Origin: a virus
Virus record (IMG/VR): IMGVR_UViG_3300006735_000020
Location: 25,325-89,324 of that record
Length of the DNA stretch: 64,000 nucleotides
Strand: one strand, 5' to 3'
Position 1 is the first letter of the stretch. Each line of letters opens with the position of its first letter. A model generated the notes under the pieces. It had not been told where the DNA came from. It saw only the letters and a list, made by a program, of their open reading frames with translations, and did not search any database. Positions 1,006 to 62,850 of the stretch are shown here, piece by piece. The position numbers and the translations under genes were made by a program.

Positions 1006-1016
1006 TAATTATTAAT

Positions 1017-2072: not shown

Positions 2073-2084
2073 AATATAATTATA

Positions 2085-2863: not shown

Positions 2864-2868
2864 GTAAT

Positions 2869-2890
2869 TATTTATGCTAGAGACTAAATA
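2869..2890. promoter_or_regulatory. Divergent pair of T4-type late promoters (TAAATA)
   Basis: TAAATA on minus (2869-2874) and plus (2885-2890), each 5 nt from an ATG. Confidence 0.7.
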
Positions 2891-2895
2891 ATTTT

Positions 2896-3333
2896 ATGAC
2901 CAAATTTGAAAACCGTTTTTTTAAATCTCTTAATGAACAAGCTGAAGAGGAGAGAGCAGCTTTTGAAGCAGAATTAGAGGATAATACCGAGGCTGGTGAT
3001 TTTGACGTAGATGTTGAAGTAGATGAAGTTGCTGTTGATGAAGATCCAAATGTAAAGGCTGCACAAGCTGTTAGCGAGCGCAACGCGGCTATGAGAACTA
3101 AGCTTGAAGGTTGGGTTGGTGAAATTGAACAGTTTTTAGAGTACTTAAATGGTTCATCTCCAGATTCAATTCAAACTCTACTAGCTAATGCTGAGCCTGA
3201 TACAATCTTTGATCGTATGAAAGCTTCTGAACAGCGTAAAATTGCTAGAGTTGCTACAGAGCTAGCTGCTCTAAACGAGTCGTTTAAAGGTTATATTGCC
3301 CAGACCGGAAATGCTCAGTTTAAATACGTTTGA
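2896..3333 (+). CDS. Acidic late protein, putative head internal protein
   Basis: N-terminus MTKFENRFFKSLNE resembles a capsid-targeting sequence; late promoter upstream. Confidence 0.65.
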   Translation: MTKFENRFFKSLNEQAEEERAAFEAELEDNTEAGDFDVDVEVDEVAVDEDPNVKAAQAVSERNAAMRTKLEGWVGEIEQFLEYLNGSSPDSIQTLLANAEPDTIFDRMKASEQRKIARVATELAALNESFKGYIAQTGNAQFKYV

Positions 3334-10705: not shown

Positions 10706-10724
10706 AATTTAATGGTATAATAGT

Positions 10725-13928: not shown

Positions 13929-14683
13929 GCACACTCTTTGCAATTATTTTCTTCGTACAGTTTATCCAACTTTTCTTGTTGGACATAGGCGATAGGATCT
14001 TTTAAACCGGCATCCACAAACCCTTTTACTCTCATACTACTAGACGGCGTAGTAGCATCTGCTAGTTTATCTTTTCTATCTGAATAACAAGTCCAAGTAT
14101 CTTTATACTTAACACCAAGTCTAGCCCCCTCTTTAATAATTTCAGCTTTAGACATTTCAAGCAACGGAGCTTCAATTACAACTCTATTTTCTCTATTAAG
14201 ATCTGTAACGTTATTAACCACATCTACAAACTCTTCACTACCATCCCAGTACCCAGCTAAGGAATCTACCTGAGCCGCACCATACCAAACAGTATCAGCA
14301 CCAACACTTTCAGCATACGAAGAGCAGATAGATAAAAACATTAAGTTTCGAAACGGTACATATGATACAGGTTGTGCATCACCAGCCATTTCACTAATAT
14401 TGGGATTATCAATATCTTCATTAGTTAAAGATGAAGTAGGAGCAATATCTCTAATGTATTTTACATCTAAGACCTTATTAGTTACCTCTAAATTAAACCA
14501 ACCGGAAAACTGCTCGTTAAAATTATTAATTTGTTTATTAACACACGTTAATTCACGTTTATGTCGCTGACCATAATCAAAAGTTAGAGTATGTATTTCT
14601 TCATAACCTCTATCTTGTGCCATATACAACAGCACAGACGAGTCCATTCCACCGCTAAGAGTTAATACTAGTTTACGTTTCAT
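13925..14683 (-). CDS. queC: 7-cyano-7-deazaguanine synthase QueC
   Basis: LSGGMDS PP-loop, FDYGQRH..E, YVPFRN, SKAEI and TWTCY motifs. Confidence 0.93.
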   Translation of the reverse strand: MKRKLVLTLSGGMDSSVLLYMAQDRGYEEIHTLTFDYGQRHKRELTCVNKQINNFNEQFSGWFNLEVTNKVLDVKYIRDIAPTSSLTNEDIDNPNISEMAGDAQPVSYVPFRNLMFLSICSSYAESVGADTVWYGAAQVDSLAGYWDGSEEFVDVVNNVTDLNRENRVVIEAPLLEMSKAEIIKEGARLGVKYKDTWTCYSDRKDKLADATTPSSSMRVKGFVDAGLKDPIAYVQQEKLDKLYEENNCKECA

Positions 14684-23881: not shown

Positions 23882-24911
23882 ATAAGCCGAGAGTGTATTT
23901 TATTATCTCTTTTTTATTCTTAATTTCAAGCAAGTTTACAAACTCTTCAATAGCTTGTGGTATATCAATGCCTGAAAGATCTTCCTTATCTTCGGTATCG
24001 TCTAAAAGTCTGTTAAAGTTAATATCATAATCAACTGTTAACACTTCAGGTTTCAGAAGTGTTAATTTTTTAATCAATATATCCATATCAGCTTGTGATA
24101 TATTCATATCGACTTTTAGCTTCGCAATATTACCAGCAAAACTATCTATTACCTCTCGTGTAATATTACCCTCTCTTACTAATTCACTAAGTGATATTTT
24201 TTTATACGACGGTGATATAGTATTAACGGTAAACTCATACTCTAGGGTATCTAAATCTAGTACATAATAGCCTTTATCATTACCAGCATCTCCAAAATCC
24301 ATTTGAAAGGGATTACCAACATACAGTACCGTTCCTTTACCAAATTTTTTCTCATGTCTAGTATGAAAATGCCCGGAAATAACTAACGAACTTTTCTTTA
24401 ATAAGTCTTTAACCTTTAATCCCTCTTCACAAACTTTATAAGAGTTCATCTTGAAGGTTTCTATCTCAAAGTGACCGAAGATAACATCACTTTTTGGTAT
24501 GTCACTTACTTTTGTGTTCCATGGACAAAGAGTAATTGTACGATCAAAAGCTTCAATCGTGTCGAAAGTATCTAAAATTGTAACATTTTGTCTTTTCTTA
24601 AAGATAGACAATGAATTAACATCTGTTCTATGCTTGTAGTAAATATCATGATTACCAGTGATCGCTATAATATTGAAATCACATAATATATCTAAAATAT
24701 CTGCAGATACTTGCAGAGTACTAACTGATATCTCACTTCTGTTGTGATGCCAATCACCGCAAAAGATTATATCTTTGATATTTTTTCTCTTACACTCGTC
24801 CTTAAACCAATGAGCCCATTCTACAGCATAATTATGCCAGTCTGAACTATTTGTATGAACACCTAAGTGAAGATCTGAAAAAATAGCAACTCTAGGCTTA
24901 CTAATCTTCAA
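23862..24911 (-). CDS. gp47: Recombination endonuclease nuclease subunit (gp47, Mre11/SbcD-like)
   Basis: SDLHLG, GD, GNHD, GHFE and SGHFH motifs. Confidence 0.95.
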   Translation of the reverse strand: MKISKPRVAIFSDLHLGVHTNSSDWHNYAVEWAHWFKDECKRKNIKDIIFCGDWHHNRSEISVSTLQVSADILDILCDFNIIAITGNHDIYYKHRTDVNSLSIFKKRQNVTILDTFDTIEAFDRTITLCPWNTKVSDIPKSDVIFGHFEIETFKMNSYKVCEEGLKVKDLLKKSSLVISGHFHTRHEKKFGKGTVLYVGNPFQMDFGDAGNDKGYYVLDLDTLEYEFTVNTISPSYKKISLSELVREGNITREVIDSFAGNIAKLKVDMNISQADMDILIKKLTLLKPEVLTVDYDINFNRLLDDTEDKEDLSGIDIPQAIEEFVNLLEIKNKKEIIKYTLGLYEKSKL

Positions 24912-25356
24912 AAGAATTTTCTTCGTCGGGTGGTTTTACATAAACGTGTCCGTGTGTATTATCCGGATTTGACATATAGTCCTCATAAACTCGTTCTCTA
25001 TATTTTGTAACAGCTTCATGGTGCTTCTTTTCCTTTTTTATTCTATTAATAAACGCGTGGTATGCAATAGTAGTAAAATAAGAGAAAGGATTTGTAGCTT
25101 TTTCGAAGTTAAACTTTTTATGTTTTAATGCTGAATACATTTTAATAAGAGCATCACCTATCATATCGTCTTTATACGTATAATTGATAAATGATCCATT
25201 ATAACTTAAACCATAAGCAATCTTCTTAATATTTTCTGCCAAATCATCCGTTAGAATATCTGTATCATAATATTTTTGTAGCGATGCTTTAAAGACCTTT
25301 GGCTCTATGTAATATGGTTTCTTTTCTTTTTTCGGTTTTTTCTCTTTTCCGGCCAT
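24901..25356 (-). CDS. gp55: Late-transcription sigma factor (gp55)
   Basis: FINYTYKDDMIGDA and NPFSYFTTIAYHAFINRIKKEKK. Confidence 0.93.
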   Translation of the reverse strand: MAGKEKKPKKEKKPYYIEPKVFKASLQKYYDTDILTDDLAENIKKIAYGLSYNGSFINYTYKDDMIGDALIKMYSALKHKKFNFEKATNPFSYFTTIAYHAFINRIKKEKKHHEAVTKYRERVYEDYMSNPDNTHGHVYVKPPDEENSFED

Positions 25357-27221: not shown

Positions 27222-27608
27222 ATGGAATCAAGTGGCAAATTTGAACGTATCTTTTTAAGAATGCTAAAAGAAGAGATGACAGCTGGTGCTGGAGGTGCAC
27301 TTGGTAGCGGATCTTCATACAATCCACCCGGAGATGTAAGTTCTGGTGATACTTATGCTCCAGGTGATGCTAGATTACCCAAGGCTCTTGGAGCAGTCCA
27401 AACACGTAAAGGTACAGCAGGTAAGAAGAAGAAAAGGAAAAGAAAAGAGGAGAACGAAGAGGGGTTTCCTGAGGAAGATGCAGAAAAGAAAAAGAAAGCT
27501 GATAGATGTAAGCGTAGGGCTGATTCCGCTTATGGTAAAAAGACTTCTGCTTACAAATCTGGAGCAATCGTAAGGTGTAGACAGGGAAAAATCTGGAAAA
27601 AGAAATGA
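27222..27608 (+). CDS. Basic late protein, putative head internal protein
   Basis: Leader ending LKEE; Lys-rich segments; SAYKSGAIVRCR module. Confidence 0.7.
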   Translation: MESSGKFERIFLRMLKEEMTAGAGGALGSGSSYNPPGDVSSGDTYAPGDARLPKALGAVQTRKGTAGKKKKRKRKEENEEGFPEEDAEKKKKADRCKRRADSAYGKKTSAYKSGAIVRCRQGKIWKKK

Positions 27609-28036
27609 GCATGTCACAAAAAGAGGTTCTTGAAGCTAGTGACTCTTTGCGACAGTGGTTTAAGAGAGGTGGAACTGATCCTAAGACTGGTAAGAAGTTT
27701 AAAGGGTGGGTAAATTGCAAGACTGGTGGCCCATGTGGTCGTAAATCTAAAAAATCCGGTGGTAGTTACCCGGCTTGTCGACCAACTAAAGCGGCTTGTA
27801 AGAGTATCAAGGGTAAGATGTATAAGAAAAAAGGACCTAAGCGTGTTAACTGGAAGAAGAAAAAGAGAAAGAGTGAAAACGCTGAAGATGTGCATAAGCC
27901 TGTTAAGCCTGGTATCTTAAAAAAGAGATTAGGTAAGTTATCTTGTAGTAAGGTGAGAGGTGCGAAGGGTAAGTTAAAGGATAAGGGTACGCATTACGCA
28001 AAAGCACTACAACGCTATTTAAATTATCATTGTTAG
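27605..28036 (+). CDS. Basic Cys/Lys-rich protein, putative head internal protein
   Basis: VLEA leader; LRQWF..GWVNCKTGGPCGR..YPACRP module. Confidence 0.7.
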   Translation: MSMSQKEVLEASDSLRQWFKRGGTDPKTGKKFKGWVNCKTGGPCGRKSKKSGGSYPACRPTKAACKSIKGKMYKKKGPKRVNWKKKKRKSENAEDVHKPVKPGILKKRLGKLSCSKVRGAKGKLKDKGTHYAKALQRYLNYHC

Positions 28037-28049
28037 CATAAATATTGTT

Positions 28050-28484
28050 ATGCAATTCGACGAATTAGTAAAGCAAATCTTAGAAGCTAAAGAAGCACCA
28101 AAGGGTAAGCATTATAACTCTGCCGGTCAGTTGAGAAAAGGCGATGCTGATTCAGATGGCCGTGGAGGTCCAAAGTATAGGTCTGATCCTACTTACAATA
28201 ACCCTAATGATCCGGATGATGAGGAGATTCCTGCTGAAGACGCTGAGAAAGTCGATAAGGATCGTATGAAGTGTAACAGTCCTCGTCGTACTTCAGGTGG
28301 TTCTAAGAAATTCGTTGTTAAAGCTTGTAAAGATGGTAAAGAAAAGATTGTTCGCTTTGGAGATCCAAATATGAAGATCAAAAAGAGCAATCCTAAGCGT
28401 AGAAAGTCGTTCCGCGCACGTCATAAGTGTGATCAGAAAAAGGATAAGTTCTCTGCTGGTTACTGGAGTTGTAAAAAATGGTAG
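28050..28484 (+). CDS. Basic late protein with DUF6321-like C-terminal domain
   Basis: KKFVVKA...VRFGDPNMKIK..NP.RRKSFRARHKC...AGYWSC..W; TAAATA 5 nt upstream. Confidence 0.75.
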   Translation: MQFDELVKQILEAKEAPKGKHYNSAGQLRKGDADSDGRGGPKYRSDPTYNNPNDPDDEEIPAEDAEKVDKDRMKCNSPRRTSGGSKKFVVKACKDGKEKIVRFGDPNMKIKKSNPKRRKSFRARHKCDQKKDKFSAGYWSCKKW

Positions 28485-28497
28485 ATAAATACGCCAT

Positions 28498-29286
28498 ATG
28501 GCGGTCGTAGATAAATACCTCAAAAACAGCTTTGCAGGGACTTTGCTTCCTGATGAGTGTGAGCAAAAAAACATTAATGTATTAACTCAAGTACACGAAG
28601 TTTTACAGATGAGATTGTTTTCTTATCTTATAGAACAAGAGTGTATTAAAGATAAAAATGACACTATTAGTATGATTGAGTTAGGTGCTGATGATGGTGA
28701 ATATACTCATATTTTTCGTAAAGTAGTTTCTTTGTTTGATAAAAAAAGCTTTAACATATGTACTGATGCTATGTTACATAGGGTCGAAAGCTTAGAAGAT
28801 AGATTTGAAGGTGAAAATGTAAAGTTATATCATGGATATTCAGGTGTATTCGATAAAAAATCGCATGAAGATGAGGCGGTTCCAGCAGGTTATTTTAGCG
28901 CAAAAAAAATTACAATGCGAGAACTCTTCACAAAAAATAATTTAGATTATTTAAATTTTTTACATATTGATATTCAGGGTGGGGAAGAAGAGTTAATTAC
29001 AGAGATTATTAATGAAGATTTATATGATAAAATAGGTTATTATTTTATTTCTACTCATGATATTGACAGACATTTAAGAGTATTGAGTGCATTAAAAAAT
29101 AATGGTCACGTAGTGTTTGATATAGCAGAGCCAGCGACTGGGTGGGCTTTTGGTGATGGTTTTATTTTAGCTACAAATAAAAAACAATCGTTATCACCAA
29201 GAGATATACCATTAGAATATATGCATTTTAATACTAAATTTAATGATCCTCCAGAAATCCGGGGCATAATACGGTATAATTTATGA
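28498..29286 (+). CDS. FkbM-like SAM-dependent methyltransferase
   Basis: MIELGA, FLHIDIQGGE, FISTH and GDG motifs; own TAAATA. Confidence 0.75.
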   Translation: MAVVDKYLKNSFAGTLLPDECEQKNINVLTQVHEVLQMRLFSYLIEQECIKDKNDTISMIELGADDGEYTHIFRKVVSLFDKKSFNICTDAMLHRVESLEDRFEGENVKLYHGYSGVFDKKSHEDEAVPAGYFSAKKITMRELFTKNNLDYLNFLHIDIQGGEEELITEIINEDLYDKIGYYFISTHDIDRHLRVLSALKNNGHVVFDIAEPATGWAFGDGFILATNKKQSLSPRDIPLEYMHFNTKFNDPPEIRGIIRYNL

Positions 29287-29681
29287 AAGATTTAGGCCAT
29301 TGGAAAGGAATTCTCGAAGAAAGTGTAGAGCTACCTTATGGTTTCATTTATAAGATAACTAATCTTACTAATGACAAAAAGTATATTGGTAAGAAGCAGT
29401 GTCAGTCAATAAGAAAGCGTCCTCCTCTGAAAGGTAAGAAGAATAAACGACATCAAAAAATAGAAACTGACTGGAAGACCTATACTTCCTCATCAAACGA
29501 ACTCAATGAACATATAAGAATACTCGGAAAGGTTAATTTTAAGTTTGAAATCCTTAGATGGTGCGATTCCAAGTGGGAGTTGAGTTATCATGAAACTAGA
29601 TTACAATTTGAAGAAGAGGTATTACTAAGAGATGACTATTACAACGGAATTATCAACGTCAGAATCGGAAGGCGTAAATGA
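29283..29681 (+). CDS. GIY-YIG endonuclease (endonuclease II/DenA-like)
   Basis: GFIYKITN...YIGKK, DWKTY.SSS, F.FEIL and YYNG motifs. Confidence 0.85.
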   Translation: MKDLGHWKGILEESVELPYGFIYKITNLTNDKKYIGKKQCQSIRKRPPLKGKKNKRHQKIETDWKTYTSSSNELNEHIRILGKVNFKFEILRWCDSKWELSYHETRLQFEEEVLLRDDYYNGIINVRIGRRK

Positions 29682-30126
29682 TACCATACGTGGTTTTGAG
29701 TTTATTAACCTTAATAAGTGTCTTAACAAGTCTTTCAATGAATATCTTCTTTATATTACCGAGCATGAGCTAAAATTAACTCGAAAAGAGAAGAATAAGC
29801 TTGGTATACACTTCATTATTAAAGAACTTATAAGTGTATGTTCTAAGACTAGTAATAAGAAATGGTTTTACTACAAGACAGACGGTAAAACAATCGAACA
29901 TACACTGGTTAAGCGTATTTTTAATGCACTACCTACTAATATATCATATAGTGAAGATAGCTTTGATACGTTTTTAGAAGAAAGAGACTACATTTCATTT
30001 AAAAAGAAAGATACATCAGCTGTTTCTTTCTATAAATTTAGACTTTTCCTTCGAAGATACGAATTGCAGCAAATTGAAAGTGAGTTTCTATCTAATATAA
30101 ATATAAAACTCTCACTACTTCCATAA
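29632..30126 (+). CDS. Hypothetical protein
   Basis: ORF filling the gap between genes; start uncertain. Confidence 0.55.
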   Translation: MTITTELSTSESEGVNDTIRGFEFINLNKCLNKSFNEYLLYITEHELKLTRKEKNKLGIHFIIKELISVCSKTSNKKWFYYKTDGKTIEHTLVKRIFNALPTNISYSEDSFDTFLEERDYISFKKKDTSAVSFYKFRLFLRRYELQQIESEFLSNINIKLSLLP

Positions 30127-30134
30127 ATATATAC

Positions 30135-30548
30135 ATGAGTAAGTTTCTAAGACTGGTAGAAGAGAATCGACCAGGTGAAGATAAATATACTGTGGAGTTA
30201 AGAGACGTAAACGGTGAAATAGTCGATTCTTTTGATATGTTTGGCGTGAGTAGCCCTTTCGATATTTTTGATAGCTTTAAGCGAGAGTATGCTCCCGAGA
30301 TTCCCGTAGAAGATCAAGAGGTTACCATGGGAAATAAAAATCCATACGATGTTGATAAGGAAGTTAATAAGTTAGCTAATCAAGCTAAGGGTGGTGTAAT
30401 GGGTAAGATTGCAGGAGCAATGGGAACAGCACCGCAAGAAGCTAAAAAGGCCGTAAAAATGAGATCAGACCTTGCAAAAAAAGCTGTAGAACTATATAAA
30501 CAACAAACTGGTAAGTTATCTAACGCAATTGATGACGCAAAAGTATAA
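30135..30548 (+). CDS. Late protein, putative head internal protein
   Basis: MSKFLRLVEE leader; TAAATA 5 nt upstream. Confidence 0.65.
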   Translation: MSKFLRLVEENRPGEDKYTVELRDVNGEIVDSFDMFGVSSPFDIFDSFKREYAPEIPVEDQEVTMGNKNPYDVDKEVNKLANQAKGGVMGKIAGAMGTAPQEAKKAVKMRSDLAKKAVELYKQQTGKLSNAIDDAKV

Positions 30549-30553
30549 AAATC

Positions 30554-30901
30554 ATGAAAAAGACATTACAATTATTTGAACAATATAAAAGGCTTTATTC
30601 AGAGCAGGATGAGGTAGAAGAAGTCGATGTTGATGTTGATGTCGAAGCTGATGCTACTGATGCAGAGGATATTCCACCGGAGCCTACTGGTATTTCACCT
30701 GAAGGTGAGGTATATGTCGCTGATCTGTTAACTAATGCCTTTATATATGCACCAGCTATGCAAGATATTAACATTGCTGCACAAGTGAATAAAGAATTTG
30801 GTAGGACACAGCCTAGAAAGGTCATTGAAACGATTGAAAGATTGATCGAATTTTCAAATGAAGAGGTTGAACAAGAACTTGAAGACTTAGACGCACAATA
30901 A
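30554..30901 (+). CDS. Acidic late protein
   Basis: MKKTLQLFEQYKRLYSE leader. Confidence 0.65.
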   Translation: MKKTLQLFEQYKRLYSEQDEVEEVDVDVDVEADATDAEDIPPEPTGISPEGEVYVADLLTNAFIYAPAMQDINIAAQVNKEFGRTQPRKVIETIERLIEFSNEEVEQELEDLDAQ

Positions 30902-30902
30902 C

Positions 30903-32294
30903 ATGCAGTGGTCATTAGAAGACATTTATAAAAAGCAGGTACGTGGTATTATTCCACCGCGTAGACATCTTCGCGTATTGGGTGAAAAGTTTAATTTAGA
31001 GGATGCGCCGGGGCTTGAACGTGTAAGAAAAGAGTTAAGCGGGGAAACGCCTATAAGAGCTAATTTATCGTTTATTGGTAAGCAAATTAATAGTAAAGAG
31101 GATATTGAGAAGTTGAATTTAGATCCAGAGATGGAAGAATATCTTAAGAAGACTCTATCGTATTGTTTAACACTTCCGGAAGAGGACCGTGAGGCTTGCT
31201 GGCAGGAATTAGCAGGGAAGGTTAAAACACATCCTATTGATAATATACTTACAAGATATCTTGTGTCAAGAGATTGGCCGAGTGTTTCTGCAGGTAAATA
31301 TGCAGGTGAGTTAGTTAAATTACTTACTAAGGATGTAGATGATATGAGAGGATTTAGTACAAAAGATCTAGAGGATTATATTGAGGGAAATATAGCTAAA
31401 CCTAATTTTGGTACTGAAACAAAAGGCAATCTTGTAACTGACTTAGGTAAGATTAAAGTACCTAGTGATTTTGTATATAAACTTATGCAGCATAAGACTC
31501 AGGATGAAAAAATAAGAGGAGTTGGAATGGGTGAGCTTGCGATGACTATATTCTTTGATAATGTTAAAGCAGCGACAGGTAAAGGAGATTTAAGTATAGA
31601 CGATCAGGAATTAGAAATTAAGGGGCATGGAGCAGCTTTAGGGGCAACTGGGGATCAAAGATTAGATATTAGGGAGTTGGTTAAAAAACCTTTAGAAGCG
31701 GGAGGGTTAGGTATTGGTTATAAGGATGTTTTAGCAAAAACAGGTAAGTTAAGGTTCACAGGACCGACTTATGGTGGTAAGATTTACAATGCTGCAAATT
31801 TTGCACAAGCTATTGCAGATGCGTACGCGGATGCGCGCGATAAAAAGAGATTTAAAGATAACTTTTGGACTATTATAGAGAAAAACTTTAACTCTGGTCA
31901 AAAAGGTGAAATGGGTAACGAACAAGATGTTAAGAGGGTATATGATGAGATAGATTTGACGAGTGCAGACGATATTAATAGTACTATAGCATTAATGAAT
32001 TTTGTTAGATATATTAGTAAAGAGGAGGTTAATCACTTTATGGTGCATGATTTTGGATCTAGAGGGAAGATTGCAAAAACAACTGGGGATTATGGACCGA
32101 GTACACCAGCGAATAGAGGAGATTATATTTACGTACACGGTGAGCCTCTAGAAATGGCACAACAATTAAGTGAGCTAGGAGAGAAAGTTGGATTTGAGCG
32201 TATACAGCTTAATAACTTAAGGCCACGGATAGGGTTACCAATGCACGGTGGAGGGTTCTACGGAGCTCCAACTGTATTAAAAGACAAATATTAA
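30903..32294 (+). CDS. Putative PD-(D/E)xK nuclease
   Basis: GVGMGE...KGDL..DDQELEIKG catalytic-like pattern. Confidence 0.55.
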   Translation: MQWSLEDIYKKQVRGIIPPRRHLRVLGEKFNLEDAPGLERVRKELSGETPIRANLSFIGKQINSKEDIEKLNLDPEMEEYLKKTLSYCLTLPEEDREACWQELAGKVKTHPIDNILTRYLVSRDWPSVSAGKYAGELVKLLTKDVDDMRGFSTKDLEDYIEGNIAKPNFGTETKGNLVTDLGKIKVPSDFVYKLMQHKTQDEKIRGVGMGELAMTIFFDNVKAATGKGDLSIDDQELEIKGHGAALGATGDQRLDIRELVKKPLEAGGLGIGYKDVLAKTGKLRFTGPTYGGKIYNAANFAQAIADAYADARDKKRFKDNFWTIIEKNFNSGQKGEMGNEQDVKRVYDEIDLTSADDINSTIALMNFVRYISKEEVNHFMVHDFGSRGKIAKTTGDYGPSTPANRGDYIYVHGEPLEMAQQLSELGEKVGFERIQLNNLRPRIGLPMHGGGFYGAPTVLKDKY

Positions 32295-32297
32295 AAA

Positions 32298-33506
32298 ATG
32301 AAAAAATTTAAACTATATTTCGAAGATTACTTAGAGCTCCTTGAAGAGGGTAAGGCTAATACACATCTCACACACTTAGAAGAACTAATTCTTACTAAAG
32401 GTAAGGGTGGTTATGATCAAGCTAAGGGCTTTTTAGTTAATTTACTCGGTCATTTACAGGGAAAGAGTAAGAGAAAGATCGGTACTACAGTAAAATGGGA
32501 CGGTGCGCCTGCTATCTTCGCTGGAAAGCACCCTGATACCGGTAAATTCTTTGTTGGTACTAAGTCTATCTTTAATAGAGATCCTAAAATTAACTATAAT
32601 GAGCAAGATGTTGAAATAAATCACGGGCATTCACCTGGTTTAGCAGATAAGCTTAAAAAAGCTCTTAAGCATTTACCTAAATTAGGTATCAAAAACATAA
32701 TGCAAGGTGATTTCATGTTTGACTCTTCATCAGTTAAGAAAGAGAACATCGACGGTGAGGTACATTATACCTTTCAACCAAATACAATTAAGTATGCAGT
32801 AGAAGCTGACTCAGATTTAGGTAAACAGATAGCTAACTCCGTGTTTGGTATTATATTCCACACTGAATATGATGGATTGGACAGCCCTGCATCATTTGGT
32901 GCTAAGGTTAACCGGTTGAATAAGGTGCCCGGTGTTTGGTTTGATGATGCTTTCTTTAAAGACGATACTGGCATTGTAAATTTAACAGATGATGAGGTAA
33001 AACAGGTTAGAGACTTAATTAAGACCGCTGATTCAATTAAAGTAGATTATAAAGACCTACCTTCCGACCTACTCAACCCTTATATCAATACAGAAATTAG
33101 AGAAGGTAAGTTCTTAAATGATCCAGAAGAATCTTATAGGAACTTTATTGAGTGGTATACTACTAGAATTAAAAAAGAAATAGATAAAAGAAAATCTGTA
33201 CGTGGTAAACAGAAATTAGAAGAGACACTTAAGCAAAAGACGGCTCAGTTTGAATCACAAAAGAGTGATATAGTTAATTTGTTTAAGGTTAGTAGTTTGT
33301 TGTCGCAGGCTAAACAGATCTTTATTAACAAGTATAATAATGCTGTATATAACACTAAACACTTCATTGATGAAGGTGAGGGTGTGCTGAGGGTCACTGC
33401 TCCTGAGGGATATGTAGCAGTTGATAGAGATGGTAATGCTGTTAAGCTTGTTAACAGATTAGATTTTAGTTCAGCTAACTTTCAAAAAGATAAACCTGGG
33501 TCATGA
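32298..33506 (+). CDS. DUF6267-like protein with ligase-type nucleotidyltransferase motifs
   Basis: NTHLTHLEE, TVKWDGAPA (KxDG), QGDFMF, PEGYV and VKLVNRLDFS.ANF motifs. Confidence 0.75.
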   Translation: MKKFKLYFEDYLELLEEGKANTHLTHLEELILTKGKGGYDQAKGFLVNLLGHLQGKSKRKIGTTVKWDGAPAIFAGKHPDTGKFFVGTKSIFNRDPKINYNEQDVEINHGHSPGLADKLKKALKHLPKLGIKNIMQGDFMFDSSSVKKENIDGEVHYTFQPNTIKYAVEADSDLGKQIANSVFGIIFHTEYDGLDSPASFGAKVNRLNKVPGVWFDDAFFKDDTGIVNLTDDEVKQVRDLIKTADSIKVDYKDLPSDLLNPYINTEIREGKFLNDPEESYRNFIEWYTTRIKKEIDKRKSVRGKQKLEETLKQKTAQFESQKSDIVNLFKVSSLLSQAKQIFINKYNNAVYNTKHFIDEGEGVLRVTAPEGYVAVDRDGNAVKLVNRLDFSSANFQKDKPGS

Positions 33507-34042
33507 GAACATTTAGAGAATATTTTGAAGATATGGAGACAAGAGTTGAGCGAATCGCTCTTCTCCCCGGTGGTTTTAAGCCCCCTACAAAGGGTCACTT
33601 TAATGCTTTAAGGTATTTGCTTGATGATGCTGATAAGGGTATTGTTTTTATTGGTGGTAAGGCGCGTGAGGGTATCACACCAGAGCAATCAGAGAAGATA
33701 TGGAACATATATGCAAAATATTTTGATAAGCCTGTAGAGGTTGTGCATGTACCAAACCCAGTAAGGGCGGTTTATGACTTTGCTGACGAACATTTAGACA
33801 GTACATTACTTGTTGGTGCTGGTGAAAAGGATGAAGATGTTAAGCGTTACAAATATTTTATAGATAATGTTGAAAAGTATCCATATGTTAATGTAGTTAA
33901 GATACCAATGCAAGAAGGTGGTATATCTGGTAGTGAAACAAGAGAGATGATACAAAAAAATATTGACGAGTCGTTAGATTACTTTGTACCTGAAGAGATA
34001 TCCATTGAAGATAGAGATCAAATAAAAGCAATATTGGTATAA
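33503..34042 (+). CDS. HxGH cytidyltransferase-like nucleotidyltransferase
   Basis: PGGFKPPTKGH and ISGSETR motifs. Confidence 0.85.
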   Translation: MRTFREYFEDMETRVERIALLPGGFKPPTKGHFNALRYLLDDADKGIVFIGGKAREGITPEQSEKIWNIYAKYFDKPVEVVHVPNPVRAVYDFADEHLDSTLLVGAGEKDEDVKRYKYFIDNVEKYPYVNVVKIPMQEGGISGSETREMIQKNIDESLDYFVPEEISIEDRDQIKAILV

Positions 34043-34050
34043 ATAATATT

Positions 34051-34470
34051 ATGAGAGATAAGAAACGTAAAGAGAAAGCTATGCTTGAAGAAGCGTACGG
34101 AAGGGTCAACGAGATGTTAGGACCTCATAATAACCCTTATCCTCAAGAGATGACAATAGCAGTGCCTGTACCAGCAGAAGATGAAAGCTGTGGAGAGTAT
34201 GATCAATCAGAAATCGATATGGCTGGTAGAGACCTTCTCAAAGCTCAAGAGTACGCAGCTAAGTTAACCGCTATGGTACAGCAGGTTCCAGGTTTAGATG
34301 GATGGGTTTCCGCTAAGATAACAAAAGCTTCAGATTATCTTTCTTCTGTATACCATTTTCTCGATTATGAGCTACGTGAAAAGCCACAGGAGGCAGTGAT
34401 AGACGTAGAGGAGATTGAAGCTCCTGTAGAAGTCTTCAATGTTGGGTATGAAGAAGCAGAAAACACTTGA
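34051..34470 (+). CDS. Late protein, putative head internal protein
   Basis: TATAAATA at 34038-34045; MLEEAY leader; WVSAKITKASDYLSSVYHFLDYE module. Confidence 0.7.
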   Translation: MRDKKRKEKAMLEEAYGRVNEMLGPHNNPYPQEMTIAVPVPAEDESCGEYDQSEIDMAGRDLLKAQEYAAKLTAMVQQVPGLDGWVSAKITKASDYLSSVYHFLDYELREKPQEAVIDVEEIEAPVEVFNVGYEEAENT

Positions 34471-34494
34471 CCTCATTCTTAGATAACAGTTGTT

Positions 34495-34935
34495 ATGAAA
34501 AAATTTAATCAATTCTTCCTCGAAAAACAAGTTTTAGGACTCATCGAGTTCTTTGACGTAGATGGTATTGGTAAGATACCATCAAAGCTTGACTCCGGTA
34601 ACGGAGCATTTAACGTTATACATGGGGAAGATATACAAGTACAGGGTAATAAAGTGCTTTTTAAGACAGTTAACAATCAACATCTTATGAAAGATAAGGT
34701 GGACGACATTGTTATTAACGTTGGTGCTGGTAATACAGAAGAAAGACCTGTAGTTAACTTTGATCTTAAGATTGGTAATAAAGAATTTAAAGATATACCC
34801 TTTTCAATTGGTAATAGATCTTCTAACCTATTTAAAATCTTAGTAAGTAAAGATTTTATTGAAAAAGAGCTTGATGCTCTTATCGATGTTAGTCAAGAAA
34901 ACATCGCTGATAGTGAAATTGAAGCTACTTATTAA
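34495..34935 (+). CDS. Retropepsin-like (RimK-associated Zn_protease family) protease
   Basis: KLDSGNG (D-S-G catalytic), EERPVV and FSIGNRS motifs; MKKFNQFFLE leader. Confidence 0.8.
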   Translation: MKKFNQFFLEKQVLGLIEFFDVDGIGKIPSKLDSGNGAFNVIHGEDIQVQGNKVLFKTVNNQHLMKDKVDDIVINVGAGNTEERPVVNFDLKIGNKEFKDIPFSIGNRSSNLFKILVSKDFIEKELDALIDVSQENIADSEIEATY

Positions 34936-35462
34936 TACCAAGTAGGCTTCCAACGTAACGTCCAAGTAGCAAAGTCTTTATCATGACGAATATACTCTCT
35001 ATATTTGTCAATGGTTGAAAGATTATTAAAATCTTTTACCTTTCTACAATCACAATCGTCACTAATAGCTACTGCATAATTAGTTAGACCGGTTTTATTC
35101 ATAATAGTATTATGAATATTCTTACCGCACCATTCAATAAACGTTTTTGTAAAATGCTCGTTTGATTCAGGCCATCTATACATACGCTCAGTAAACATTT
35201 CCAATGTATGATCAACTAACCACTTAAAGTTATCTTTAGTTTCGCGAGCCCATATAGAGCATTGATGATTAAAGTACCCTTTACCTCTTCTTCGAGGTTT
35301 ACCGGTAGAAGTTCTTGGAGTAGATGGATGATCTAATACTTCTTGAGGAAATGCATGAGCTAACATAATAGCCCCTTCAATTTGCATCTTTGATCTTACG
35401 TGTTGATCACAGAGATTATAAGTAGAGACGATAGGATCGTCATCCGTTACAAAAATATTCAT
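34932..35462 (-). CDS. Pyrimidine-dimer DNA glycosylase-like protein
   Basis: MNIFVTD.DP, CDQHV.KM.IE, NH.CSIWAR and YR.Y..DK motifs. Confidence 0.8.
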   Translation of the reverse strand: MNIFVTDDDPIVSTYNLCDQHVRSKMQIEGAIMLAHAFPQEVLDHPSTPRTSTGKPRRRGKGYFNHQCSIWARETKDNFKWLVDHTLEMFTERMYRWPESNEHFTKTFIEWCGKNIHNTIMNKTGLTNYAVAISDDCDCRKVKDFNNLSTIDKYREYIRHDKDFATWTLRWKPTWY

Positions 35463-35484
35463 TCCTTTATTGTAAAGTCGTTCC

Positions 35485-36534
35485 TTACCTTAATCCAGTC
35501 GACTCAAAAACATCTCTAGTAACACCAGCTTTAAAGCCTCCTTCAATACCTTTTACAATAACTGATACAGCATTATGACTATGCAAACTCTCATTATGAG
35601 AAGCTACAATCTTAAAGTCTAAGATACGGGATTCGTTAGTAAGCTTTTCATATAACAGTCTCACAGCGTCTTCCACGAACTTTAAGTAAGCACCATTCTT
35701 TTCAGCAAATGCTTGCTCATCTTCTCGCTTAACCATAACTTGTGTCTCAGTTTGTAGAGCATCGAGACATAATTCTTGAATATCTTCAATCCAAAGCATA
35801 TCTTCAAACTTTACACTTACACGAGCAACGCTTCTCTGACTATGAGGTACAGTAGCTCTATTACGATACTTCTCAGCATGCTCACTTAATTCAAAGCTAC
35901 AAGGACAGGCAGAAGAATAAACAAAATCAAAATGAATATACTTCTTAAATTCACCCTCTTTAGTTAAGTCACCTTCAAATACCACATCATAGTATTGATA
36001 ACCTTCTAGACCACTACGTAAGCTTTTTTGTTTAATAGGGTAAGAAATTTTAAGCATTATTCTTGAGTCAAAACACTTGAGATTATTTTTATAAGTCTCT
36101 AAAACGTCTTTAATCTTATCAATACTAAATGTCTCATCCTTATGATCGTAAAAACTTCTCATAATACGTGACATATTAATGCCTTTCTTATGAGCTTCTA
36201 AACTAACACTACCAGTAACACTCGTTTCTAGTTCAATAGTCTTACCATTTCTCTTTTTATAAGTCAAAGGCAGTTTAAAGTTATGAATACCTACTTGCTG
36301 AATAGGAACTGCCGCACCTTGAATTAAGCTAGATGGTCCATTTTGCAGATCAGGTAAAGAAGATATATACTCTTTAGTAGCGACGACGTTTTTATCATAA
36401 ACTCGAATAGGAGGAAAATAACTACTGCTATATTCTTCACCCATTATTTTTTTTGCAATAACATCTTTTTCGCCAGTAAGTTCATCATCCTCTCCTAGCC
36501 ACTCATAATTAGAATCTTTTTTACTTTTACTCAT
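35485..36534 (-). CDS. folE2: GTP cyclohydrolase I type B (FolE2)
   Basis: LPDLQ, VGI, KGINMSR, SACPCS, PHSQRS, VKREDE, FVEDAVR and ESLHSHNA motifs. Confidence 0.93.
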   Translation of the reverse strand: MSKSKKDSNYEWLGEDDELTGEKDVIAKKIMGEEYSSSYFPPIRVYDKNVVATKEYISSLPDLQNGPSSLIQGAAVPIQQVGIHNFKLPLTYKKRNGKTIELETSVTGSVSLEAHKKGINMSRIMRSFYDHKDETFSIDKIKDVLETYKNNLKCFDSRIMLKISYPIKQKSLRSGLEGYQYYDVVFEGDLTKEGEFKKYIHFDFVYSSACPCSFELSEHAEKYRNRATVPHSQRSVARVSVKFEDMLWIEDIQELCLDALQTETQVMVKREDEQAFAEKNGAYLKFVEDAVRLLYEKLTNESRILDFKIVASHNESLHSHNAVSVIVKGIEGGFKAGVTRDVFESTGLR

Positions 36535-36588
36535 TTATATGATACTATTATAACTACAATATTTGATTTTCAAGACTAAATATTGTAT

Positions 36589-38010
36589 ATGGCGAAAATG
36601 TCACAAAAAGAACTGGTTGAAGAAGGTTTTTCAGATAAGATACGTGGTATAGCGAAAGCGGTTAAAACCGGTGTTAAGCAAGCTGCTCAGCAAGGTGTAA
36701 ATTTAGATACCGGTCAGCTAACTACGGGGATGTATAAGTCTTATAAAGGCGAGCAACCAGTAGCGTTCCTTAAGAAAGCTCTAGAGAATGACAAAGAGAT
36801 TGGGATAGTTAAAATTGACAAGAGTAATATTAAAAAACAACAAGCAAGTGGTAAGAAGGGTTACCTAGGTCGAATTGTTGGACCGAAAACAGTAACTTTA
36901 ATTCCATTCGAAGGTACTTTATATAATAAGAAGGAGAGGCGTTATGAGGGACCTGGAGCTGGTACTTCACCTCCACCTGATGCTGTAAATGCGGAGCTTA
37001 AAAATGAAAAGACAGCATATATGGGTGATTCAAGAGGTGAAAGAGGTAAGTACAGACCGGTAAGTGAGAAGGGATCAGTAAAAAAACGACTGTTGGGAGC
37101 TCTAACCAAGATAGGTATAGATGATCAATCGGCAAAAGAGTTCGCTTTATATTTAAGTAAAAATATGAAACGAGTTCTCGCAGGGATACAGAAAACAAGA
37201 GCTGGACGTGGTTATGATTTTACGTTTGATCCTGATGCAGCACTCGGTGTAACTAAGACAACAAAGAAGGCTCCGAAGTTTCCTAGAGCGGGAGGTGTTG
37301 CCGAGGGTCCTACTGTGCAAGAGTTACAAGATAACCCTCCTAAAACAAAAAAGTTAGTTATACCAGAAGGTTTTACTTTAAGAGATATTATTCAGTTATC
37401 TAAAAAGGTTTTGCTTTTTGAAGAGCCAGGGGATGACTTTTCTGAATATAAAAAAATGGGCCCTGCTAAATTTATTGCTAATTTATCTGATGAACAAATG
37501 GAATCCTTGTTAAAGGATATTCAAGAGATACAGCCTGGATTAGACGTGCAATTTAAATTAAAAGCATCACAAGACTATCTTGATAGAAAAGAGAAAGAAG
37601 AGACTGGTCCGAAATCAGACTATCAAGGTGAAACAGGGATGTTTGTAGCAGAAATATTTAGAACGAAAGATGGATTACAGCTTGGCGATATATATAGACA
37701 AGAAGATCCAACAGACGTTGTTAGAGGCGCGCAACAAAGTAAGAGTAAAGAAGAAGTTAAACTGTCCCCATTTGATAAAACTGTAGAAACCTTAAAAACT
37801 AAGAATAATCTTAAAGCTAACACGCTAGTATCTGCAATCAAAGAAATTAATGATGTTAATATAATAACTAATATTACCGGTGGCAAGGAAGGGGATAGAT
37901 TATCTGATGATGATATAGTAAAAATTAAAAACGAGTTAATTAAGCAAAAGATCATTAAAGAAAAAAGTTCTCAAAAAATCCTGCTTCGACAGTTGACTTC
38001 GCTTTCCTAA
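36589..38010 (+). CDS. Large late protein, putative head internal protein
   Basis: Start moved to ATG 36589, 6 nt after TAAATA (36577-36582); SQKELVEEG leader. Confidence 0.7.
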   Translation: MAKMSQKELVEEGFSDKIRGIAKAVKTGVKQAAQQGVNLDTGQLTTGMYKSYKGEQPVAFLKKALENDKEIGIVKIDKSNIKKQQASGKKGYLGRIVGPKTVTLIPFEGTLYNKKERRYEGPGAGTSPPPDAVNAELKNEKTAYMGDSRGERGKYRPVSEKGSVKKRLLGALTKIGIDDQSAKEFALYLSKNMKRVLAGIQKTRAGRGYDFTFDPDAALGVTKTTKKAPKFPRAGGVAEGPTVQELQDNPPKTKKLVIPEGFTLRDIIQLSKKVLLFEEPGDDFSEYKKMGPAKFIANLSDEQMESLLKDIQEIQPGLDVQFKLKASQDYLDRKEKEETGPKSDYQGETGMFVAEIFRTKDGLQLGDIYRQEDPTDVVRGAQQSKSKEEVKLSPFDKTVETLKTKNNLKANTLVSAIKEINDVNIITNITGGKEGDRLSDDDIVKIKNELIKQKIIKEKSSQKILLRQLTSLS

Positions 38011-38098: not shown

Positions 38099-38731
38099 AT
38101 GACTTATACATCTTCGAAGGTACTCGAATTAGGATCAACAGCATTTCGTCAGCCTAATGCAGATTCTCATTGCAAATATTTACATGGCTATCAACTCAAA
38201 GCAGAACTTACTTTTGGTTGTGAAAAACTAGATAACAATAACTGGGTATTTGATTTTGGTGGGTTAAAACAACTTAAAGAAATTTTTAATAATCAATTTG
38301 ATCATACTACTGTTATTTCTGGTTTAGATCCTGATTTGGATACTTTTAAGGACTTGCAAGATAAAAATATTATTCAACTAAGAATTCTAGAAACTGGTGT
38401 AGGTATTGAAAAATTTGGTGAATGGGTATTTAAGACTGCAGATACGTATATTGAAGAAGCAACTGAAGGACGCGTATGGATTGAAAACGTAACAGTATTT
38501 GAGCATGGTAATAACTTTGCATCATGTCATAAGTCTGTAAAAGCTGGATCAACGTTTGTTGATGAAGAGGGTACTAAAACACATGTTGTTGAGGATGTGG
38601 CTCCGGAAGAGCCAATCACTACAACAGAACCACCGGAACAGCGAGTTGATCCAAGAGCTGCTAATGTTGGTCCTGCTAAAAAGAGTAACAACTTTAGTAA
38701 CCCATTTGAAGGTACATCTTGGGGTGCTTAA
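38099..38731 (+). CDS. queD: QueD-like 6-carboxytetrahydropterin synthase with C-terminal extension
   Basis: HCKYLHGY, WVFDFGGLK, FDH, GIE and V.VFEH motifs. Confidence 0.85.
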   Translation: MTYTSSKVLELGSTAFRQPNADSHCKYLHGYQLKAELTFGCEKLDNNNWVFDFGGLKQLKEIFNNQFDHTTVISGLDPDLDTFKDLQDKNIIQLRILETGVGIEKFGEWVFKTADTYIEEATEGRVWIENVTVFEHGNNFASCHKSVKAGSTFVDEEGTKTHVVEDVAPEEPITTTEPPEQRVDPRAANVGPAKKSNNFSNPFEGTSWGA

Positions 38732-39510: not shown

Positions 39511-40266
39511 ATGATTGATTGTACTAAAGAAACTTTACTAGTATCGGACGATAAAGCATTTTATACACTTGAAGGAGAAGGCGAATATGTTGGCATGCCA
39601 TCTGTCTTTTTTAGGCTTTCGATGTGTAACTTAACATGTAAAGGATTTGCTTCTGAGGATTCTCCTCATGGTTGTGATTCTTATATATCGTGGTCTGTTA
39701 AAAATAAAATGACCTTTAATGAGATTTTTGAATACTTTGAAAAACATAAACTTGTAGATAAGTTACGTGAAGGTGCAATCTTTAAACTTACAGGTGGTGA
39801 ACCTATGGTACAACAAAAGCAGCTACTTAAGTTTATTAAGGCCTTTATATATAAGTACGATTTTCACCCTGTAATTGATTTCGAGACGAATGCTACAATT
39901 CAACCTGATGAAGCTTGGATAAAGGAGTTTCATGCTACCTTTACAACATCACCTAAATTAACATCAAATGGAGATCCAGAGAAGAGGACTTATAAGCCTG
40001 AAGTATTAAAGTGGCATAGAGAAGTAGGATCTGGATTTAAGTTTGTTATTAACTCTGATGAAGACATTAACGAAATATGGCGTAAATATGTTGACGATGA
40101 TACTGTTCGGGTACCGAAAAATAGAATATGGTTTATGCCTTGTAGTGGTAGTAGAGAAGAGCATGTAGAAAGAGCACCTGCTGTTGCTGAATATGCAAAA
40201 GCGATGAATGTTAATTTTTCACCTAGATTGCATTTACTTATCTGGGATATGGCTTTAAAGGTTTAG
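39511..40266 (+). CDS. queE: 7-carboxy-7-deazaguanine synthase QueE (radical SAM)
   Basis: FYTLEGEG, FFRLSMCNLTC...GCDS, TGGEP, ETN, SPKL and RLH motifs. Confidence 0.92.
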   Translation: MIDCTKETLLVSDDKAFYTLEGEGEYVGMPSVFFRLSMCNLTCKGFASEDSPHGCDSYISWSVKNKMTFNEIFEYFEKHKLVDKLREGAIFKLTGGEPMVQQKQLLKFIKAFIYKYDFHPVIDFETNATIQPDEAWIKEFHATFTTSPKLTSNGDPEKRTYKPEVLKWHREVGSGFKFVINSDEDINEIWRKYVDDDTVRVPKNRIWFMPCSGSREEHVERAPAVAEYAKAMNVNFSPRLHLLIWDMALKV

Positions 40267-62184: not shown

Positions 62185-62850
62185 ATGGCATTAAAACTTA
62201 ACTTGGTTGTTGAAAAACCTGATGTAAATGATGAGTTCGAATACATTGAAGAAGAAGTAGATAGAAACTCGCCTTCAAATTTATTTATAAAAGGCCCATA
62301 TATGATGGCAGAGGGTGTCAATAGAAACAACCGGATGTATCCATTAAAAGAATTAGAAAGAGAAACTGCGCGTTATATGGAAGAAATGGTAACACCAGGC
62401 AGGGCGATGGGTGAGTTAAACCATCCAACTACAGCAGATGTTGACCTTGAAAGAGCCTGTCACATTGTAACAGAGCTAACTCAAGATGGAAATGTTTTTT
62501 ATGGTAAATCAAAAGTTTTAACAACACCATGTGGTCAGATAGTTAGGGCTTTAATTAACGATGGTGTAAAAGTTGGTATGTCTTCTCGTGCTTTAGGTAC
62601 ACTTGAAGAAAGCAGCGATCATAGTACAGTAAAAAACATGAAACTAGTAGCTATTGACTGCGTAGCAGACCCGTCATATCCAAAAGCTTTTGTTAATGGT
62701 ATCTTAGAATCAAAGCAATGGGTTGTTGTTGGTGATGATAAATACGAGGAAGTATATGAAAATTTCGAAAAATCACTAAAAAGATTACCTAAAAAGGATG
62801 TAGATACCTTTTTACGTGATAGAATTCTTAGCTTTATTAGATCAATTTAA
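62185..62850 (+). CDS. gp21: Prohead protease (gp21)
   Basis: NRNNR.YP, GELNHP, GMSSRALG and D.VADPS...AFV.GILE motifs; TAAATA at 62174-62179. Confidence 0.95.
   Translation: MALKLNLVVEKPDVNDEFEYIEEEVDRNSPSNLFIKGPYMMAEGVNRNNRMYPLKELERETARYMEEMVTPGRAMGELNHPTTADVDLERACHIVTELTQDGNVFYGKSKVLTTPCGQIVRALINDGVKVGMSSRALGTLEESSDHSTVKNMKLVAIDCVADPSYPKAFVNGILESKQWVVVGDDKYEEVYENFEKSLKRLPKKDVDTFLRDRILSFIRSI

Follow-up and report, generated by a model that had tools for sequence, protein, structure and literature searches.

Few marine viruses are as abundant as the T4-like myoviruses. We analyzed a 64,000-nucleotide stretch of DNA (the window; positions 25,325 to 89,324 of the IMG/VR virus record IMGVR_UViG_3300006735_000020), which is part of a single 89,324-base contig from an uncultured marine T4-like myovirus of a Kyanoviridae-like clade. 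The contig encodes a T4-type replication set (DNA polymerase and gp41-, gp46/47-, UvsX/UvsY-, and gp32-like proteins), and the 25 kb upstream of the window carry baseplate and fibre genes. Our subject is a plus-strand cluster of late-type genes at positions 27222-34935 of the window, together with two outlying genes at 36589-38010 and 2896-3333, many of whose products begin with short leader peptides that may direct them into the assembling phage head. Genes are named below by their start positions. For comparison, relatives were collected from IMG/VR (183/193 candidate stretches confirmed; 80 kept, at 58-99% identity), among them G004, a 196,877-base relative that is 93% complete and whose DUF6267 protein is 93% identical to that of the window. 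The phage collection searched contained no near-identical DNA for 27222-38010.

In phage T4, internal proteins are marked by a capsid targeting sequence (CTS), a propeptide of 10-19 residues in which positions 4 and 7 serve targeting and positions 8 and 10 serve processing (PMC9026906, section 2.6). From this geometry we derived a leader rule, M..[FYW]..[FYWLIM][FYWLIVM] followed by E or xE (an aromatic residue at position 4, hydrophobic residues at both 7 and 8, then Glu at 9 or 10). Four of the 101 open reading frames (ORFs) on the contig match the rule (30135, 32298, 33503, and 34495), and all four lie inside 30135-34935. Random N-termini of the same composition gave 0.11 expected matches, with a maximum of 3 in 2000 draws, and only 2 of 378 internal Met sites, used as a control, matched. 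A further control of 60 kb of T4 (of 169 kb) yielded one match among 103 ORFs; as this part omits the internal-protein genes, it gauges false positives only. That sole T4 match is gene 61.1 (L099:18966-19130, minus strand), which encodes the 54-residue hypothetical gp61.1 and whose N-terminus, MKTFKEFIKE, is very similar to the CTS of the T4 internal proteins. On the contig, 30554 matches a relaxed rule (D) only, and 2896, 27222, 27605, 28050, 34051, and 36589 do not match. A hydrophobic-x-Glu motif, which has low information content, ends at residues 5-20 in 10/12 cluster proteins versus 36/89 others (one-sided Fisher p 0.006). A wider rule, M[KRST][KRST][FYW], was dropped as too loose; it also picks the single-stranded DNA-binding protein (7331). 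A genome-wide scan of G004 matched 5/256 ORFs (three in the cluster, one further late gene starting MVSFKVYYE, and one clamp-loader false positive), so the strict leader motif is not widespread.

An earlier note on this DNA had quoted ten N-termini as resembling the T4 targeting peptide and counted about ten leader proteins. All ten N-termini are found in the sequence at the genes named there. The likeness to T4 stands for four or five of them (four by the rule and 30554 by its relaxed form), whereas the others are only loosely similar. The count was generous, comprising 4-5 strong leaders and 6-7 that are looser yet conserved, and it passed over a clear leader gene, 30903. The observation of cargo-type leaders is thereby partly confirmed: the case is strong for four or five proteins and loose for the others.

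The looser leaders nonetheless form recurrent types that are conserved in relatives, and they have hydrophobic-x-Glu at their ends. Those of 27222 and 2896 share xFExxFFxxLxE, and those of 27605 and 36589 share MSQKE-hydrophobic-hydrophobic-E. The 28-residue leader of 30903 is of yet another kind, and its conservation, described below, is the most telling of all.

Start signals link the cluster to virion genes. In 27/101 genes TAAATA lies 4-9 nt upstream of the start codon, a placement seen at 0.6% when 20,000 positions were drawn at random, and the genes bearing it include those for baseplate, fibre, portal, neck, and protease. The same signal precedes 27222, 28050, 28498, 30135, 34051, 36589, 2896, and 12543, and the other cluster genes abut or overlap the preceding gene. 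With TAAATA-N4-9-ATG common to both groups, the cluster appears to share the start signal of the virion genes. A related hexamer, TATAAT, stands just upstream of the start codon in 12/101 genes; the spacing of TAAATA/TATAAT is 3-9 nt (for example at 1839-2072 and 18226-20802, both on the minus strand, and at 27222, 58221, and 62185), and random positions carry these motifs at 0.6-0.8%. No Shine-Dalgarno sites were visible across the contig. From motifs 3-9 nt before starts that lack Shine-Dalgarno sites, many mRNAs may be leaderless or nearly so.

The cluster opens with three small basic proteins (27222, 27605, and 28050) of 128-144 residues, with isoelectric points (pI) of 9.7-10.4 and 26-32% Lys+Arg, which resemble the basic internal proteins of T4 in small size and basicity. 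The first (27222..27608, 128 residues, pI 10.0) consists of a leader, a capsid-like segment, and a Lys-rich tail behind an EDAE junction. Its N-terminus is MESS-GKFERIFLRMLKEE; the leader, MESSGKFERIFLRMLKE(E), is conserved in 14 loci, and TATAAATA lies 8 nt upstream of the ATG. Over its residues 15-56 the protein shares 53% identity with the G004 major capsid protein, residues 56-104 (E 2e-8 in a database search of the ORF set, 2e-10 pairwise). Aligned with T4 gp23, the matched capsid stretch falls between the conserved ENQEK and MIRR..GVQPM blocks, in the place of FLTE/AEIGG in T4, where gp23 is cut after Glu65. CIEE, which contains the only Glu residues of the G004 capsid protein in the ENQEK-MIRR interval, is aligned with LKEE of 27222. 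The 27222 protein thus carries, ahead of its Lys-rich tail, a copy of the maturation site and N-arm of the capsid protein. No other feature of the sequence argues as strongly that the 27222 protein, at least, meets the prohead protease.

The second small basic protein (27605..28036, 143 residues, pI 10.4, 32% K+R) has its leader boundary at MSMSQKEVLE/ASDSL. In L006 and L007 the leader is swapped for MSKFEQALESYLEE, and the body from ASDSLRQWF on is 92-97% identical. The third (28050..28484, 144 residues, pI 9.7, TAAATA start) has its boundary at MQFDELVKQILE/A and ends in a module (phrog_7595) that stands alone in Pelagibacter phage HTVC008M and is fused to the end of a 650-residue nucleotidyltransferase in Methylophilales phage Melnitz. 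Each of the three proteins contains one E(D/N)AE site, conserved in orthologs; the contig has six such sites versus about 1.5 expected. In relatives L008, L010, and L015, 27222-type N-modules are joined to 28050-type C-modules at this site. E(D/N)AE is a junction between modules and may also be a second site of cleavage, although it has no hydrophobic P3.

Gene 30903 (30903..32294, 463 residues), which directly precedes the DUF6267 gene, joins a conserved 28-residue leader (MQWSLEDIYKKQVRGIIPPRRHLRVLGE, ending HLRVLGE) to a hypervariable body. The leader is 75-93% identical in 13/14 homologues (43% in L020, the most distant) and the body only 11-25%; the 17 proteins that bear it group into five clusters by their bodies. 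Across 11 distinct leader DNAs, 15/28 positions are invariant, eight of them via two or three codons, and pairwise codon differences amount to 318 synonymous versus 289 non-synonymous. Invariant residues maintained through changing codons indicate selection on the peptide itself. A constant leader on exchangeable bodies is a hallmark of the T4 internal-protein genes, as reviewed in PMC9026906. In an AlphaFold2 (AF2) model of the protein, residues 11-37 had a predicted local distance difference test (pLDDT) score <50.

The body of 30903 carries candidate residues of a PD-(D/E)xK-type core (E211, D229, E238, and K240) that are invariant in 33 sequences and lie in the model on a helix and two successive strands (H209-217, E230-232, and E235-240). 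The core, GxGE...GD(L/I)...E(L/I/V)K, recurs in all five body types (in 5/8 printed sequences by regular expression, in the other three by eye). Foldseek and VIA-wide searches with the model returned no significant nuclease match, so the nuclease reading draws on motif and strand order; the Atlas lead to restriction enzymes scored 0.79 only. Being hypervariable, this gene may be in an arms race with a factor external to the particle. The gene before DUF6267 belongs to a family other than 30903 in HTVC008M (L001:7878-8936), Melnitz (L002:7836-8921), and cyanophage S-SM1 (L097:947-1780). These three have in common a PKTD...S(L/M)K motif, possibly a further core of the restriction-enzyme kind, and the S-SM1 member has been found in the virion by mass spectrometry.

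Directly downstream, the DUF6267 protein (32298..33506, 402 residues; Pfam E 2e-97), with its leader boundary at MKKFKLYFEDYLELLEE/GKANTHL, is a candidate ligase/capping-type nucleotidyltransferase (KxDG). K66-W-D-G is invariant in 31/31 sequences. Its AF2 model has a pLDDT of 75, with residues 1-24 <50. Foldseek matches reached E 0.15 or worse, and DNA/RNA ligases and a capping enzyme recur among these weak matches. In a second look with VIA, Trl1, Naegleria Rnl, T4 Rnl2, and human LIG1 matched at Z 4.3-5.1, the alignments beginning at K66 or next to it, at positions that would be the adenylated lysines of these ligases. Single-sequence and profile comparisons with PDB sequences found nothing meaningful, and a VIA-wide search on the model gave helical-bundle matches only (Z up to 6.8), which we set aside as uninformative. 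By tblastn, the protein matched 406 phage records, best in HTVC008M (39%) and Melnitz (37%); the remaining matches were mostly to cyanomyoviruses, all Kyanoviridae.

The neighbouring gene (33503..34042, 179 residues, leader MRTFREYFED) encodes a (T/H)xGH nucleotidyltransferase (PPAT/NMNAT/cytidylyltransferase-like) with the motif GGFKPPTKGH. It matches phosphopantetheine adenylyltransferase (PPAT; PDB 4f3r) at E 8e-5 over residues 15-163, and the alignment begins at residue 15, behind the leader. Scores to Pfam and NCBIfam models were below cut-offs, and the S-SM1 cytidylyltransferase SSM1_190 is a distant homologue (E 6e-5). In more distant relatives, a nucleotidyltransferase, a middle domain, and DUF6267 make up one protein of 760-864 residues with the leader-like N-terminus MKTLGHEIIEQMLSE, and the fusion junction, ...ELLTE/AKANTHL, is the point where the leader of the free DUF6267 protein ends. 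In L080 the order is reversed (DUF6267-nucleotidyltransferase). Given these fusions, the nucleotidyltransferase and DUF6267 proteins very probably work together. L080, from another phage lineage, also has at least five ORFs (177-4571, 10273-10971) with MKLL(L/F)ENWR(K/E)(Y/F)L(N/K/D)E or MKFINEWRQFLKE at or near the start, an independent shared-leader family.

The last of the four rule-matching genes encodes a retropepsin-like protein (34495..34935, 146 residues, KLDSGNGA), whose leader, MKKFNQFFLE, is the one nearest to that of T4 (rules A and B of our set). It scored 22.3 bits against PF05618 (cut-off 27), E 0.006 against PDB 9g58, and E 1e-5 at 25 bits against RloA3 (cut-off 210); D33-S34-G35 is invariant in 11/11 sequences. 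The enzyme labels of the earlier note fare unevenly. Nucleotidyltransferase holds for 33503 through the PDB 4f3r match. For 32298, ligase-like is plausible from the invariant K66-W-D-G, but its fold matches to ligases are weak. Protease, for 34495, has the invariant DSG in its favour, but the retropepsin-like matches are all below curated cut-offs.

The other leader-bearing proteins are mostly acidic. That encoded by 30135 (30135..30548, 137 residues, TAAATA start) has a T4-CTS-like leader, MSKFLRLVE(E), which passes rule B; the leader is 70-100% identical in relatives, and the identity of the remainder falls to 24%. The very acidic product of 30554 (30554..30901, 115 residues, pI 4.1) has the leader MKKTLQLFE within the N-terminus MKKTLQLFEQYKRLYSE, and its orthologs start MKTLKLIEQY. 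A third acidic protein (34051..34470, 139 residues) bears a loose leader, MRDKKRKEKAMLE(E), with TATAAATA before its start. The outlying 36589 gene (36589..38010) encodes a basic protein of 473 residues (pI 9.4) with a 27605-type leader, MAKMSQKELVE(E). The MSQKELVEE stretch lies 5 residues into a TTG-started ORF at 36583, and a start at ATG 36589 gives MAKMSQKELVEE; with TAAATA 6 nt upstream of that ATG, MAKMSQKELVEE is the likelier start. Searches of families, Atlas, and PDB gave no usable lead for this protein. The second outlier, 2896 (2896..3333, 145 residues), encodes an acidic late-type protein among early genes, with a CTAAATA start and the 27222-type leader MTKFENRFFKSLNE; its G004 ortholog starts MARFENRFFKVLKE. 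Pfam, PHROGs, and NCBIfam returned nothing for 27222, 27605, 30135, 30554, 34051, 36589, 2896, or 12543. The last of these (12543-13928, plus strand) is a late-type gene of 461 residues on the strand opposite to its early neighbours, with TATAAATA 6 nt before the ATG and the N-terminus MSSFDFTDNFSGFNDLFNRAEFLTE. Both termini of its product are conserved in G004, with a variable stretch between them, and it may encode a further cargo or virion protein.

Two elements within the cluster stand apart from the predicted cargo. The 28498 gene (28498..29286, 262 residues, TAAATA start) has no leader, a weak likeness to FkbM methyltransferases (E 9e-5, below cut-off), and counterparts in two related loci only; it was not counted as cargo. 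A segE-type GIY-YIG homing endonuclease (29283-29681, plus strand; Pfam PF19835 E 1e-32) and a 164-residue ORF overlapping it (29632-30126, plus strand) form a mobile insert, 29283-30126, that splits the cluster and is seen in 21 related loci. Genes for 7-deazaguanine synthesis (amidotransferase-like, QueC-like, FolE2, QueD-like, and QueE-like) are wrapped around the cluster, at 11381-12043, 13925-14683, and 35485-36534 on the minus strand and at 38099-38731 and 39511-40266 on the plus strand. Given this gene set, the phage DNA may be modified.

The machinery for head maturation is encoded at the far end of the window. A T4-type prohead protease, Peptidase_S77 (62185..62850, plus strand; Pfam PF03420 E 1.2e-32, phrog_207 E 2e-56), lies downstream of the portal gene (58221-60035). 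Between the protease and the contig end stand a 48-residue basic core-like protein (62862-63008, plus strand) and a scaffold-like protein (63011-63862, plus strand), read as such from this position, a weak T4_CASP match (E 0.003), and synteny with G004, in which the capsid gene comes next. Peptidase_S77 is also present in relatives G002, G004, and G005 (3/5 records searched; the two without it are fragments, only 24-27% complete). The late sigma factor, gp55-like, is encoded at 24901..25356 (minus strand; phrog_234, E 6e-26).

Virion proteomes of cultured cyanophages offer an external view of the homologues. In purified S-SM1 virions, 41 proteins were detected, among them the T4-GC190 cytidylyltransferase with 25 peptide counts and GC1453, GC1454, and GC1455 with 12, 10, and 7 (Sullivan 2010, PMC3037559, section 26 and Suppl. 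Table 8). According to GenBank notes, GC1453, T4-GC190, GC1454, and GC1455 correspond, in this order, to SSM1_188, 190, 191, and 192, which flank SSM1_189 (DUF6267, T4-GC71). The N-terminus of SSM1_190 is MKKFSAFLNE and that of SSM1_192 is MLSFKELQE; SSM1_189 has no such leader. NMNAT- or cytidylyltransferase-like proteins are also reported from the virions of S-SCSM1, S-CBWM1, and S-CREM2 (PMC9602691, PMC10665884), as NMNAT (ORF91) in S-SCSM1 (PMC9602691) and as a cytidylyltransferase (ORF154) in S-CREM2 (PMC10665884). The S-SCSM1 authors note that NMNAT-like proteins are frequent in cyanophage virions and suggest in section 13 of their paper that the particle carries them (PMC9602691). Our literature search for 'capsid targeting' with 'cyanophage' returned only a T4 review and that for 'DUF6267' nothing, and no paper in the literature searched ties these virion enzymes to a targeting peptide. 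The T4-type CTS/internal-protein principle and the virion association of the nucleotidyltransferase are already known. New here are the multiple leader families, the mimic of the capsid cleavage site, the leader-tagged hypervariable nuclease-like gene, and the fusion evidence linking nucleotidyltransferase and DUF6267.

We hypothesize that the products of the late plus-strand cluster at 27222-34935, and those of 36589-38010 and 2896-3333, are packed into the head as it assembles. Their short propeptides, N-terminal and of at least four sequence types, would dock these late proteins to the prohead core, with the core-like and scaffold-like proteins as presumed partners, and the S77 prohead protease would remove the propeptides after hydrophobic-x-Glu, as the T4 enzyme does with internal proteins IPI-III and Alt. 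The mature proteins would remain with the DNA and probably be ejected with it. The predicted cargo comprises the three small, very basic internal-protein-like proteins, the diversifying PD-(D/E)xK-type nuclease, the KxDG ligase-like DUF6267 protein, the PPAT/NMNAT-like nucleotidyltransferase, the retropepsin-like protein, and several acidic or basic proteins. For packaging and processing of the core leader set we estimate a probability of about 60%. Docking, cleavage, copy number, ejection with the DNA, and a role in host takeover or counter-defence are further steps that we infer. As a cargo system the cluster is partly supported, in that an S77 protease, late-type signals, and conserved leaders on variable bodies are all present, one of the predicted cargo proteins copies the cleavage region of the capsid protein, and mass spectrometry has found homologues of the nucleotidyltransferase and of its neighbours in cyanomyovirus virions.

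Several points weigh against this reading. The phage and its close relatives are known from sequence alone. Only four or five leaders fit the T4 peptide, the others sharing little beyond a Glu-terminated amphipathic start, and the hydrophobic-x-Glu motif is also found near the N-terminus of 36/89 non-cluster proteins. Two strong leaders have Asp at position 10, with Glu at 9; in T4, Asp at position 10 blocks processing, not targeting (PMC9026906). The AAA/TTT-rich starts could partly stem from translation-initiation selection where Shine-Dalgarno sites are lacking. The ligase, nuclease, and peptidase assignments consist of motifs and sub-threshold matches. Mass spectrometry shows that a protein accompanies purified particles but does not place it inside the head, and the S-SCSM1 authors also allow for carry-over (PMC9602691). 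The leaderless SSM1_188 was detected in the S-SM1 virion (PMC3037559), whereas Syn9 gp184, with the leader MKKFSAFLSE, went undetected in the Syn9 virion, and the published S-PM2 list likewise has no homologue. DUF6267 (T4-GC71) appears in none of the three virion lists (S-SM1, Syn9, and S-PM2); the S-SM1 and Syn9 forms of the protein are leaderless.

The most direct challenge is that these are ordinary late cytoplasmic proteins, with N-termini made alike by selection for A/T-rich unstructured 5' ends and by generic amphipathic helices, and with virion detection due to carry-over. Promoter-like motifs 4-9 nt before starts and the lack of visible Shine-Dalgarno sites agree with such selection, as do several leaders that begin ATG AAA AAA TTT and MKK starts on the unrelated genes 22076, 51417, and 52448; carry-over is allowed for by the S-SCSM1 authors, and the missing detections in Syn9 and S-PM2 fit it as well. 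Codon bias, however, fails to explain why leaders that combine an aromatic residue at each of positions 4 and 7 with a Glu at 9 or 10 occur in a single cluster. Nor does it account for a 28-residue 30903 leader retained over swapped bodies with synonymous changes, for the likeness of 27222 to the cleavage region of the capsid protein, for the reuse of a leader end as a fusion junction, or for the published detections in four independent virion preparations. We regard this explanation as unlikely.

On a second account, with a similarly small share of the probability, the leaders are genuine prohead-targeting signals, but what they bring in helps assembly (as core or scaffold accessories of the T4 gp67/gp68 kind), condenses DNA, or stays in the capsid, and is no set of injected effectors. 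The three basic proteins, at pI 9.7-10.4, do resemble DNA-binding fillers, 27222 mimics the capsid N-arm, and the sequence says nothing on ejection. A nucleotidyltransferase, a ligase-like protein, and a nuclease, however, have no obvious job inside the head, and the hypervariability of the nuclease-like gene points outside the particle. Moreover, T4 internal proteins and CTS fusions enter the cell (PMC9026906, section 2.7).

Least probable of the three is that the conserved 5' ends, above all that of 30903, are recombination joints for cassette exchange with no targeting function: bodies are indeed exchanged behind a constant 84-nt start among phages with 91-99% identical DUF6267, and the small basic proteins trade modules at the conserved EDAE junction, but the leader's eight invariant residues on two or three codons and its excess of synonymous over non-synonymous differences speak for the peptide, and exchange at a shared leader is also described for the T4 internal-protein genes (PMC9026906), which makes the two readings compatible. 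Each of these alternatives covers part of the data, but none accounts at once for the copied capsid site, the selection on the leader peptide, and the recurrent detection in virions.

A bolder form of head packaging, which we consider improbable as a whole, is a virion-borne nucleic-acid toolkit delivered with the genome. It would consist of a fast-evolving, restriction-endonuclease-like nuclease with strain-swapped specificity behind its constant leader, ligase-like and NMNAT/PPAT-like enzymes, a retropepsin-like peptidase, and basic DNA-coating proteins. From the very start of infection, the injected nuclease could act as a 'reverse restriction' on unmodified host DNA or on the DNA of competing phages, with the phage's own DNA perhaps protected by the 7-deazaguanine pathway.

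If head packaging and delivery of these proteins are real, part of host takeover or counter-defence would precede phage transcription and be invisible to gene-expression studies. The leaders would be a simple sequence handle for predicting the virion cargo of uncultured phages, and they would account for the recurrent NMNAT-like 'non-structural' proteins in cyanophage virion proteomes. The hypervariable nuclease-like cargo would be a likely arms-race gene, and in the engineering of marine phages the leaders could be put to use as tags for packaging, a service that the CTS already renders in T4.

The closest known system is that of T4 IPI, IPII, IPIII, and Alt with gp21. It, too, has a short propeptide in which positions 4 and 7 are hydrophobic or aromatic and the cut (predicted here) follows Glu, as well as an S77-type protease, small basic cargo, and variable cargo behind a conserved leader; late expression, as suggested here by start signals, would be a further likeness. 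In contrast to the single leader of T4, several types of 10 to 28 residues are present here; the cargo is mostly predicted nucleic-acid enzymes, not small inhibitors; one protein copies the capsid cleavage region; and none has sequence homology to the T4 internal proteins. The virion nucleotidyltransferases of cyanomyoviruses (T4-GC190, S-SCSM1 ORF91, and S-CREM2 ORF154) belong to the same (T/H)xGH group as 33503. T4-GC190 has the same gene order beside DUF6267 (T4-GC71), and the S-SM1 and Syn9 leaders, MKKFSAFL(N/S)E, are alike, whereas 33503 has 179 residues and the S-SM1 cytidylyltransferase 387. The ejection proteins of the giant phages SPN3US and the phiKZ group belong to another phage group and have another cleavage logo, and they are documented by proteomics, whereas our set, in this comparison as in that with T4, is known from genome sequence. 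Yet these phages likewise hold many proteins inside the head, enzymes among them, that are cut by a T4-related protease and delivered, as reported in PMC5694885 and PMC7411985.

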